Virus record (IMG/VR): IMGVR_UViG_3300013382_000004
Length of the DNA stretch: 64,000 bases
Reading direction: 5' to 3' (one strand)
Source of the DNA: a virus
Taxonomy: Duplodnaviria > Caudoviricetes
The notes below the pieces were generated by a model. It had not been told where the DNA came from. It worked only from the letters and a program-made list of their open reading frames with translations, and did not search any database. Numbering within the stretch: position 1 is the stretch's first letter; every line of letters starts with the position of its first letter. Made by a program: the position numbers and the translations under genes. This document shows, in pieces, positions 56,512 through 59,403 of this stretch.

Positions 56512-57096
56512 TTAGTTCCCCTTAAAGTAATATTCATAACGCTCTCCATCCCAAAGAGGATGCTTAACATTCTTTTCAACATGCCAATCATAATATTCGC
56601 CCTTTTCATCTACATCGGCAACATAGCAATTATCATCAGGGTCACAACTGTTATCATTGCCAGTGTAAATACAACTTCTTGGGTCAAAAAGAAAGCGTTT
56701 TAATTTGTCATCATCTTCAAGAATTTCATTAATGAATGGAATGAGTTCTCCTGCATGGTCTACAGAACCACTACAGTCCCAAGATTCCCAATCACTATAT
56801 TTACTTGTCTCTCTTTTGTAATCAGGAACAAAGATTTTAATCTTAAAGTCTTCTTCAAGCTTACGTTTAAATTCCTTTGCTTGAGCACCCATGTCACAAT
56901 CAAGCATAGCTGTATAAAGATAAGAAGCCTTATCTTCCGTGGAAGAGTAGCAACTTCTTTCCCAGCCATAATCTTTATCTGCATTAAAATTTAGATAAGC
57001 TGGAATATGTTCTGGACCATAATTGTCCTTTGAAATAACAAGAGAATGACAAGAACTTGAATTTGTTTCAAATACATTTTTACGAATTTGTTTCAT
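56512..57096 (-). CDS. FETNSSS-motif protein 1
   Basis: MKQIRKNVFETNSSSCHSL; start overlaps radical SAM stop. Confidence 0.8.
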   Translation of the reverse strand: MKQIRKNVFETNSSSCHSLVISKDNYGPEHIPAYLNFNADKDYGWERSCYSSTEDKASYLYTAMLDCDMGAQAKEFKRKLEEDFKIKIFVPDYKRETSKYSDWESWDCSGSVDHAGELIPFINEILEDDDKLKRFLFDPRSCIYTGNDNSCDPDDNCYVADVDEKGEYYDWHVEKNVKHPLWDGERYEYYFKGN

Positions 57097-57994
57097 TATT
57101 CTTCTCCTCATTTAAATCTCTCAAAAACTGATACATTTCAGTAACAGTCTTATTACCAACATCATAGCGGTTATTTACATCACAAGAATTTCTTGCGAAC
57201 TGCATTTCAACTCCATCAATGTACATAGAAGCACTGGTCTGTTCGCCATCTTGGCCGTCATCACCCATGTACATAGTATTCCAATCTTCCTCAGACATAA
57301 GACGCTGAGGTTCAAGCTGCTTAATAGCAAGATTGTCAAAACTAATAACAGAGAACCACTTCTCGTTAATCATACGACCAAGATTGTCATAGATTGCCTT
57401 CTGCTTATTAGCTACAAGTTCCTTGGCCCAATCTTCCTTAACATATTCCTCACCACGGCGAACAGTCTTGTAACCAAGAATAAGAATCTTAAGGTTACGA
57501 TTCTTAAGAGCACGAAGAGTATCCATTGTTACAATGCCATTAATGACATGGAGAACAAGATTGGGATACTTAGAAATAGTCTTAAGAAACTGCGGCTGAA
57601 GAGGGTCAACAAGAGAGACACCAATACCATAGATGAGCTTTTCCTTAACAAGCTGTTCAATAAGCTCCTGATTCTTCATAAAGGCAAACTGATGAACAGT
57701 CATATTAGGAATAAGATTCAATTCCTTACACTTGCGAAGAAAAGGAATCAAGTCAGGATGAGAAAGGGGGTCTCCACCTCCAATTGCAAGCTCTGTGTAT
57801 TCATGGAAACTTTCAAGAACCTTGATACCCTGTTCACCAAGAATGTCACCATGCTTGCCAGTTGGAGTGCTATTTTCATGACAATTACTTACCAAAATAT
57901 TTTCGACAAAATAATTGTGATTATCTTTTACTTCAATATTATAAACTTTTCCACTATAAGAAATTCTTTCGATAGAATCAATTTTCATTTTCAT
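57080..57994 (-). CDS. split intein C-part (37 aa) fused to radical SAM C-extein
   Basis: KVYNIEVKDNHNYFVENILVSN|CHENS; then ELAIGGGDPLSHP, NMTV, GIGVS, ISFDNLA. Confidence 0.85.
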   Translation of the reverse strand: MKMKIDSIERISYSGKVYNIEVKDNHNYFVENILVSNCHENSTPTGKHGDILGEQGIKVLESFHEYTELAIGGGDPLSHPDLIPFLRKCKELNLIPNMTVHQFAFMKNQELIEQLVKEKLIYGIGVSLVDPLQPQFLKTISKYPNLVLHVINGIVTMDTLRALKNRNLKILILGYKTVRRGEEYVKEDWAKELVANKQKAIYDNLGRMINEKWFSVISFDNLAIKQLEPQRLMSEEDWNTMYMGDDGQDGEQTSASMYIDGVEMQFARNSCDVNNRYDVGNKTVTEMYQFLRDLNEEKNNETNS

Positions 57995-58964
57995 CTTCCT
58001 TACTATCTAAAATATGTCTTTTATGAAATTTAGGGTCTACTTTATCATGACAAGATTCACATACTACTAATCCAATATCATGAGAATTGTGATAATCTAC
58101 AATAGCCTTTTCAAGTTTTAAATAGTCTTCTGACATATATTCAACTTTTTGACCATTTAAACCTAATTCTTTTAGAAATCTTTCAAATATTTCTATAAAG
58201 GGTTCTTTATGATGAACGTGCAAATATCCCCGTCTTGCCCCACAAACTTCACAGGTATAATTAGTTCTTTCAAAATTTGCCTTTTTCCAATCTCTTAAAC
58301 GAATTCGGATATAATTCTATAAAGAGCGAGTTCCTTTAAAACTTTTTCTTTCTTTGCCTCGGGGATATTTTAATTCACCTGATTCCAAAAGCTTTTTAAG
58401 AGTTTTTTGTTTTTTGTCTTTGCTATCTGGGTTATTCATTGGATTATTATTTTTCATACGCTTAGATGCTTCTTTTCTATTTTGTTCTTTGCGTATTTCT
58501 TTTTGCTGTTTGTCTTGTTCCTTTTCTTTTTCTTTCTAACAATATTCTTCCCAAGTTAATTCTTGTTCGTAAACAGGATTGTTTAATTTCATCCTTAAAG
58601 AAGCTTCAAGATTATTCTTCTTTTTGCATTCATCACAAGTATACGCAGGATTGTTTTTGAGATTTTTTCTGGTTACTTTTTTAGTAACTGTTTTTAAAAT
58701 TTTTCCGCACTATCTACATATAATATTTTGCTAAAATTCTTTTAAAATATGCGGTTTTTCTTTTATACATTCAGGACAAAGCTCTTTACTTTGTTTTGCA
58801 GTAGCCTAATATTCTTTCCCGCATTTCTAACAAATGTAAGTTTTAGTTTTATTTTTATACTATATACGATGCCACTCTTTTCGACATTCGTTATTAAAAC
58901 AAACAATGGTTCTACTATCTCTTGTTTCAAATTCCTGCTAACATATTTGGCACTACTTAATTAT
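57978..58964 (-). mobile_element. free-standing HNH homing endonuclease gene, 9 in-frame TAGs, probable ATA start
   Basis: GAGGT-8nt-ATA; KqCQICqQEF, CqKCGKEYq, CRqCGK zinc fingers; RMKNNNPM; CEVCG..LHVHH...CESCH. Confidence 0.8.
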
Positions 58965-59403
58965 AAAGCATTACCTCATCATTGGTTGTCAAAAAGCCAG
59001 CTTCTACCCAACCTCTATTAATAGTATAAATCTTATGATTAGGAGTACAAATAATAGTTTTATCTTCGACTGTGATTTTAATTAATTCTCCATTATAATC
59101 ACGTTCATAAAGTTTAACGACAGGCTTCAATTCTTTAATATGATTTTCCAAATTATAAGAATCAACAATATCTCCGATATTCACTTCTTCAATCGGGACA
59201 TCGTTTCCATTAACTTTTACTTTTACTCCAGCAGGAAAACAGAAACTACAACCCTGTGCGCAATTATTAGTAATTTTATAGTCGCAACATTCTGGAAAAT
59301 CAGCCTTGAAAAAGCTTAAATCATTTTCACGAGTCTTGGTCCCATTGTCCAAGTCGATGGAAACCATATAATTACCGTTCTGATAAGTCTTAATATTACT
59401 CAT
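58957..59403 (-). CDS. radical SAM N-extein (54 aa) fused to split intein N-part (94 aa)
   Basis: KITNNCAQGCSF|CFPAG...IEEVNIGD.V...CTPNHKIYT..GWVEA..L...DEV then TAA. Confidence 0.85.
   Translation of the reverse strand: MSNIKTYQNGNYMVSIDLDNGTKTRENDLSFFKADFPECCDYKITNNCAQGCSFCFPAGVKVKVNGNDVPIEEVNIGDIVDSYNLENHIKELKPVVKLYERDYNGELIKITVEDKTIICTPNHKIYTINRGWVEAGFLTTNDEVMLYN

Follow-up and report, generated by a model that had tools for sequence, protein, structure and literature searches.

We describe a locus in a 64,000-nt stretch of gut jumbo phage DNA (IMGVR_UViG_3300013382_000004; the whole stretch analysed is called the window below) that is very probably a radical S-adenosylmethionine (SAM) gene fractured by a mobile split intein. 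As read from the sequence, a 1358-nt element interrupts the gene directly before the codon for the third cysteine of the CxxxCxxC motif and carries a free-standing gene for an HNH-type nuclease between the two intein parts. All features of the locus are on the minus strand and are arranged as follows.

59403..58957, minus strand: N-half open reading frame (ORF), 148 aa from ATG, consisting of a 54-aa extein and the 94-aa N-terminal intein part (IntN), with a TAA stop
59242..59403, minus strand: N-extein of the radical SAM enzyme, 54 aa, ending ...NNCAQGCSF and holding the cluster cysteines C48 and C52
58957..59241, minus strand: IntN, 94 aa, with Cys1 (CFPAG) at 59241, block B TPNH and the TAA at 58959-58957
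57978..58964, minus strand: free-standing ORF of the putative HNH-type homing endonuclease (HNH ORF), 328 codons, between the halves, with a TGA stop
57994..57080, minus strand: C-half ORF, 304 aa, starting M-K-M-K-I-D; the C-terminal intein part (IntC) is followed by Cys at 57883-57881
57884..57994, minus strand: IntC, 37 aa when counted from the first ATG or 35 aa if the ATG at 57988 is used, with block F DNHNY and the end LVSN
57080..57883, minus strand: C-extein, 267 aa and TAA, beginning with Cys+1 and holding the GGGDP motif and barrel, the rest of the radical SAM core
57884..59241, minus strand: whole mobile element (IntN, HNH gene and IntC), 1358 nt

This layout had been proposed earlier from the letters of the window, and we refer to that proposal as the original prediction. 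It described an extein ending in C-A-Q-G-C-S-F, followed by a 94-aa IntN with CFPAG and TPNH and by TAA, and the ORF and its translation confirm this anatomy. The C-half was said to have its own Shine–Dalgarno sequence and ATG and a 37-aa IntC ending in LVSN before the cysteine. This is also what we found, with an AAGGA motif upstream of the start and with an alternative start further in: the second ATG (57988) is located 8-9 nt after AAGGA and lines up with the starts of the relatives. If translation begins there, the real length of IntC may be 35 aa. The ORF starts at 59403, 58964 and 57994 are 0, 2 and 1 modulo 3, so that the three genes are indeed in three different frames with overlapping starts and stops (8 nt between N-half and HNH ORF; 17 nt between HNH ORF and C-half). 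The length of the insert is 3n+2 and no multiple of three. Both host halves end with TAA and are free of in-frame TAG, and the joined exteins form a protein of 321 aa.

Alleles lacking the element

When IMG/VR was scanned with the N-half, 14 loci were obtained, 12 of them uninterrupted and two (L005 and L009) fractured. The uninterrupted alleles, all on sister contigs, encode 319-321 aa, and their DNA is 83-92% identical to the joined exteins of the window. The element is missing from these 12 closely related alleles exactly between ...AGTTTC and TGTCAT..., and residues 1-55 of the uninterrupted alleles L006-L018 are 76-98% identical to the N-extein. At the junction, the uninterrupted sister alleles read ...CAQGCSFCHENSTP.... 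In nine of the 12, the protein sequence is ...C-A-Q-G-C-S-F-C-H-E-N-S-T-P..., which is identical to the predicted spliced product; in the other three, the motif has V in place of A (one allele) or is C-x4-C (two alleles). According to the original prediction, joining of the halves would give CAQGCSFC in an enzyme of ~321 aa with Cys+1 as the third cluster ligand, and the intein-less alleles match this.

The CxxxCxxC motif becomes whole only after joining, with C48 and C52 contributed by the N-half and C55, the intein +1 residue, by the C-half. All three cysteines are invariant in an alignment of 46 sequences of the family.

Some uninterrupted alleles depart from this spacing. L016 and L017 (~4130-4170) read C-C-P-F-G-N-C-Q-F-C (C-x4-C-x2-C) at the homing site, and these spacing variants may be alleles resistant to cleavage.

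The interrupted enzyme

Of the 288 positions of PHROG 16999 ('Fe-S oxidoreductase'), the N-extein covers 5-32 and the C-extein 27-285 (E 4.1e-29). Uninterrupted homologues are present in the Lak-A, Lak-B and Lak-C megaphages (294-295 aa) and in the Microcystis phage Ma-LMM01 (gp128, 305 aa), and the joined exteins align with these genes without a gap at the junction. The C-extein is 40-44% identical to the Lak phage genes and 34% identical to Ma-LMM01 gp128. A downstream gene with the N-terminus ...F-E-T-N-S-S-S-x-H is syntenic in the Lak loci.

An AlphaFold2 model of the uninterrupted allele L006 had a predicted local distance difference test (pLDDT) value of 92.8. Foldseek matched it with a probability of 1.00 to CteB, SuiB and SkfB (best), then to EpeE, PqqE, anSME and viperin. 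The template modelling (TM) scores of ~0.45-0.6 against radical SAM structures support a general radical SAM core and nothing narrower. Accordingly, the fold search gave no specific enzyme function beyond the radical SAM core, the nearest structures being peptide-modifying enzymes, and no SPASM/twitch cysteines were conserved in the family alignment. With Pfam PF04055 (cut-off 29.5), the scores of the two halves were 14.8 and 18.3; precomputed matches to this model exist for uninterrupted relatives. The enzyme family comprises 2787 cluster representatives at E <= 1e-3. By its sequence relatives and its modelled fold, the host protein is a radical SAM enzyme.

The two parts of the intein

Intein profiles of NCBIfam recognized both halves above their cut-offs: TIGR01445 (intein_Nterm) scored 31.1 on the N-half (cut-off 24.5) and TIGR01443 (intein_Cterm) 20.7 on the C-half (cut-off 15.6). 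PT-HINT scored 28.1 (cut-off 27.7). Along the 155 positions of Pfam Intein_splicing, the N-half covers 7-93 and the C-half 122-155. Hidden Markov models (HMMs) built from the relatives matched within the window at this locus alone (1e-44 and 8e-24), and these custom IntN and IntC models detected no other intein in the window. Scores above the cut-offs together with matches confined to the locus indicate that the intein call is more than chance.

The residues expected to carry out splicing are conserved. No variation occurs at Cys1 (Cys55 of the N-half) or in C-T-P-N-H-K-I among 16 N-halves with 42-97% identity to the window IntN, and the terminal Asn (N37) and Cys+1 (C38 of the C-half) are invariant across 10 C-halves, in which D-N-H of block F is also invariant or nearly so. 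The protein database contains a family of N-halves of 145-156 aa that are 44-90% identical to that of the window. Among solved inteins, the closest by sequence was the NrdJ-1 intein (8ubs; E 2.3e-7), which aligns over the block B TxxH region. From these sequence features, the intein of the element is classified as a natural split intein of class 1 and HINT type.

We also predicted the complex of the two parts, using IntN with 7 extein residues and IntC with 8. The prediction scored 0.68, and the best of three controls scored 0.00. This score was reached by 58 of 80 solved complexes and by 2 of 110 mismatched pairs, benchmark counts that are only rough because the alignments were self-made. At least 94% of the contacts agreed between runs, the partner pLDDT was at least 69, and the confident part of the predicted interface contains Cys1 (residue 55) and Cys+1. 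Since split-intein complexes have already been solved, the result may reflect likeness to those complexes and is not proof that this copy binds or splices.

Fractured relatives and signs of recent mobility

Besides the window, L005 has the same fractured locus (97% protein identity), and L009, a 553-kb Lak-A-like contig, has its fracture at the identical codon, in a host gene with only ~44% identity. The order N-half, nuclease, C-half was also found in L019-L025, contigs that encode related N-halves. In total, the fractured layout occurs in at least six independent assemblies from IMG/VR, ENA and Logan (L005, L009, L019-L025) at 42-97% identity. In the more distant fractured loci, a spacer of 38-160 nt lies between the stop of the N-half and the start of the nuclease.

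We calculated the ratio of non-synonymous to synonymous substitution rates (dN/dS) by the Nei-Gojobori method for four genomes that are all fractured (window, L005, L024 and L025). The ratios were 0.06-0.11 for the exteins, ~0.3 for the intein and 0.05-0.09 for the HNH ORF. Such low values among genomes that all carry the fracture indicate that every part is still under purifying selection after it.

Between the window and L005, the element differs by 4 mismatches in 1358 nt (99.7% identity). The dS of the exteins is 0.37 for the same pair, and the flanks are 84-94% identical. The step in identity is sharp, the nearest flanking mismatches being located 18 nt from the junction on the 5' side and 9 nt from it on the 3' side. 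Such a near-identical element in diverged backgrounds, together with the empty alleles of sister phages in the same data set, points to the footprint that would be expected of homing with short co-conversion tracts.

The same site is used by inteins of another kind. Longer homologues of the enzyme (640-710 aa; e.g. P0039, P0043, P0064 and P0099) have contiguous LAGLIDADG inteins at the very same site. P0031 and many other longer matches have such inteins at a second site, which is within the A-I-G-G-G motif for SAM binding. NCBIfam includes models of intein-containing radical SAM proteins.

A related arrangement was observed in L046, L047 and L049 (1835-4349), where a related IntN, an HNH gene and an IntC split a distantly related radical-SAM-like gene at ...K-C-N-F|C-Y-V-S.... 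The insertion is at the equivalent cysteine, and the hhalign probability for this host gene was only 53%. The upstream neighbour of this split gene carries the motif I-T-N-S-S-S-E-T-F.

The putative endonuclease gene and its amber codons

The HNH ORF encodes three zinc-ribbon CxxC pairs, two R-M-K-x-N-N-P-M repeats and a C-terminal CxxC...HVHH...CxxCH motif. Nine stop codons interrupt it, all of them TAG, with no TAA or TGA. The orthologues in L005, L024 and L025 contain 9-11 TAGs and have the zinc-ribbon and HNH residues intact. The pattern T-C-x-x-C-G ... L-x-V-H-H ... V-V-C-x-x-C-H is kept in six orthologues (one lacks one Cys), and H252, H253 and H307 are invariant in these six. PHROG HNH families matched the HNH ORF at 4.7e-5 and its orthologues down to 1.1e-9.

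With nine in-frame TAGs, the ORF is readable only if TAG is a sense codon. From its sequence, we regard the phage as amber-recoded, with TAG read as Gln (code 15), as has been published for Lak and other gut phages (bioRxiv 10.1101/2021.08.26.457843). In the window, only two of the 74 long ORFs have TAG as their stop, and internal TAGs are missing from almost all ORFs. On the contig of the 97% relative L005, a tRNA gene with the anticodon CUA is located ~9 kb away from the locus; the tRNA resembles tRNA-Gln in its G73 and in the lack of pairing at position 1-72. Three of the nine TAG columns of the HNH ORF have Q in the closest of the relatives that contain few TAGs; otherwise K, E, H, I and L are found.

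The start codon of the HNH ORF (58964-58962) is ATA in the window and ATG in L005, L024 and L025. No ATG, GTG or TTG start occurs in the ORF before 58592. The G-to-A change that makes the ATA also alters the last residue of IntN from D to N. This ATA may mark the onset of nuclease decay, or it may be a sequencing variant. Of the free-standing HNH gene that had been predicted between the halves, an endonuclease ORF is thus present, but it is readable only with TAG as sense and has lost its ATG here.

Further observations concern amber codons elsewhere. At column 314 of alignment A3, the HNH ORF of L021 has a TAG where the five other orthologues have an invariant Trp. Either this TAG is a nonsense mutation, or it hints at a reading of TAG as something other than Gln in some cases. 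In L023 (~740-780), the frame of the N-half meets a TAG right after the end of IntN, with ten more codons to the next stop, and the C-terminus of its IntN would thus differ before and after amber suppression. The window contains a second amber-dense ORF (29070-30458, minus strand) with eight TAGs in 462 codons, and its surroundings are otherwise free of in-frame TAG. We considered it as an HNH paralogue and rejected this, as comparison showed the two to be unrelated; it also had no Pfam match.

SNF2-type helicases with contiguous inteins are encoded in L052 (1417-4911) and L050 (301-3252). With identities of 26-31%, their inserts resemble that part of the HNH protein which contains the zinc ribbons and R-M-K-x-N-N-P-M.

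Proposed mechanism and alternative explanations

We propose that the N-half and the C-half, both in standard code, would be translated separately and that IntN (94 aa) and IntC (35-37 aa) would associate into a HINT fold. Cys1 would form a thioester, Cys+1, the future third [4Fe-4S] ligand, would attack it, and the terminal Asn would cyclise. The splicing product would be a seamless 321-aa enzyme able to bind the cluster. The HNH protein would be made only once a phage amber-suppressor tRNA reads the nine TAGs, presumably late in infection. It would then cut uninterrupted alleles of co-infecting relatives, and repair would copy the element into them (homing). With ATA as the start codon, production of the nuclease from this genome is probably low or absent.

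Several results weigh against this interpretation. For the nuclease, the Pfam HNH models found nothing significant on the HNH ORF, the best E-value being 0.21 (PF01844) for one orthologue. A PDB sequence search with the ORF likewise gave no significant match, and Pfam and PDB returned weak zinc-ribbon matches only. The best fold match of the HNH protein was weak as well (T5 SciA HNH nuclease; probability 0.99, target TM 0.58, E 0.11). The PHROG matches, the motif and this weak fold match suggest the HNH assignment. No suppressor tRNA, and no tRNA of any kind, was found inside the window, and the ATA start may impair homing from this genome. For the intein, each half taken singly (32.5 and 21.7) is under the gathering score of 35.8 of Pfam Intein_splicing. 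Moreover, the penultimate intein residue is Ser in the clade of the window (window, L005, L020, L024, L025 and P0021-P0024), and the usual His is absent there; His is found in L009, L021 and L023.

The replacement of His by Ser would also fit a locus at which no splicing occurs and the intein fragments hold the two halves together non-covalently, as nothing more than a dimerisation handle, like the intein-less split NrdA of phage Aeh1. That genes in pieces can function unligated is known from Aeh1 NrdA, as cited in PMC2677866, and the predicted association of IntN and IntC is silent on chemistry. However, Cys1, TxxH, the terminal Asn and Cys+1 are invariant down to ~42% identity, which would be unexpected were the chemistry dispensable. 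An unspliced HINT domain of ~130 aa would, moreover, be lodged in a cluster loop of seven residues, between its second and third ligands, and sister lineages ending in VHN and in VSN both retain the layout. We therefore consider non-covalent reassembly improbable.

A still smaller chance is given to a gene killed by invasion of the endonuclease, with the halves as decaying relics of a dispensable accessory gene. The enzyme, for which the fold search gave no specific function, is absent from many phages, and the start of the HNH ORF is already mutated in the window. Decay is nevertheless hard to reconcile with an extein dN/dS of 0.06-0.11 between genomes that are all fractured, with halves free of stops and frameshifts in all fractured loci examined, and with invariant splicing residues. 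Least credible, to the point of being nearly negligible, is an error of assembly or sequencing, or else the frameshifted reading of a contiguous intein that contains the HNH. Homologues do have contiguous inteins at this site, and metagenome assemblies can contain indels. The insert length of 3n+2, however, would require two compensating shifts. The same frames, stops and starts recur in independent assemblies from different samples, which rules out an assembly artefact; the spacers of 38-160 nt in the distant loci rule out contiguous reading.

The preferred reading, a gene fractured by a trans-splicing intein, can be extended to an enzyme whose assembly is doubly conditional, although we think this unlikely. 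Because the Fe-S ligands (Cys+1 and the cysteines at -3 and -7) adjoin Cys1, it is conceivable that oxidation (disulfide trapping) or metal binding could block trans-splicing, so that ligation would occur only in a reducing cell. The nuclease would be locked behind the code switch of the phage, and the element would also have jumped to the distantly related radical SAM-like genes of L046, L047 and L049 via conserved cluster-motif DNA.

Comparison with known systems

Fractured genes with split inteins were described by Dassa, London, Stoddard, Schueler-Furman & Pietrokovski in 2009 (PMC2677866), among them gp41-1, gp41-8, NrdJ-1, IMPDH-1 and NrdA-2. Their hosts were eight DNA synthesis or repair enzymes and their nucleases GIY-YIG or Vsr-like; HNH nucleases able to fracture genes were predicted only. 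The window locus shares with them a phage host gene in two ORFs, a canonical-site split intein (IntN of ~90-105 aa, IntC of 35-40 aa) and a free-standing endonuclease ORF in another frame, the 3' end of which overlaps the start of the IntC ORF (by 17 nt here and by 6-69 nt there). The best solved relative of the window IntN also belongs to this set (NrdJ-1 intein). In contrast to these systems, the host here belongs to the radical SAM enzymes and is interrupted within its Fe-S motif, the nuclease is of HNH type with zinc ribbons and has nine amber codons in its gene, and Ser is the penultimate residue of the intein. The layout has been known since 2009, and what is new here is the class of the host enzyme and the HNH-type nuclease.

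The contiguous LAGLIDADG inteins are in the same host family at the identical insertion point before the third cluster Cys. They share the C-terminal block (...Y-x-A-N-N-x-L-V-H-N|C; 55% identity over 22 aa) with the window element, whereas only weak similarity was seen in the N-terminal splicing region (32% over 68 aa, E 0.013). They are part of a single polypeptide of 640-710 aa with an in-frame LAGLIDADG domain, unlike the window element, which is split and has a separate HNH gene. The original prediction had called a radical SAM host unusual. With many homologues carrying contiguous inteins at this site and at the second one, such a host is less unusual than predicted. The fractured form in this host was not found in the literature: our search gave no paper in which radical SAM genes or Lak-like phages were described with a split intein, which is weak evidence, as most subscription journals were outside its coverage.

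Borges et al. (bioRxiv 10.1101/2021.08.26.457843) put forward the idea that a recoded intron endonuclease in an early gene is delayed to late infection. As in the window, a nuclease rich in recoded stops lies within a standard-code gene, and its translation is expected to be delayed until suppression. Their nuclease is encoded in a group I intron of Jade phages, with TGA as the recoded stop; ours belongs to the split intein of a fractured gene, with TAG. The nrdA gene of Aeromonas phage Aeh1, split by mobE (Gibb & Edgell 2007; Friedrich et al. 2007, as cited in PMC2677866), also has an HNH-type gene between the halves of a phage enzyme. According to the account in PMC2677866, translation of that nuclease is limited to late infection by a promoter and RNA structure and not by the genetic code, and the gene has no intein, its halves associating unligated.

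With the locus described here, the fractured-gene layout would reach beyond enzymes of DNA metabolism to an Fe-S radical enzyme. The alleles at this one site (empty, with a split intein, or with a contiguous LAGLIDADG intein) would provide a snapshot of the homing cycle in a population. A nuclease written in the late code within a host gene that is not would use the genetic code as a timing control, tying intein mobility to stop-codon recoding as an intein-borne counterpart of the recoded intron endonuclease. For engineering, the diverged natural split inteins (42-97% identical, with Cys+1 and VSN or VHN ends), related to yet distinct from NrdJ-1, are candidate orthogonal ligation tools.

Surroundings of the locus

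No terminator was detected within the element. A promoter scan was uninformative (23 promoter-like sites versus 16.5 expected), Bacteroidota-type promoters being outside the coverage of the scan. A blastn search with the 3.7-kb region gave no match in the phage collection.

On the upstream side of a small zinc-ribbon gene (window 59700-60900 versus L005 2500-3700), identity falls from ~90% to 50-60%, and a hypervariable or replaced segment thus adjoins the locus. Proteins starting with ...R-K-N-V-F-E-T-N-S-S-S-x-H flank the radical SAM gene at 56512-57111 and 61218-61661, both on the minus strand. A protein of this F-E-T-N-S-S-S-x-H type is encoded by the downstream gene in Lak phages and in sister contigs (L001, L002, L005, L006 and L009). 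In the relative L020 (7839-8447), an ORF with a LAGLIDADG domain follows or interrupts the downstream DUF2828/TROVE-like gene, representing another mobile element nearby.

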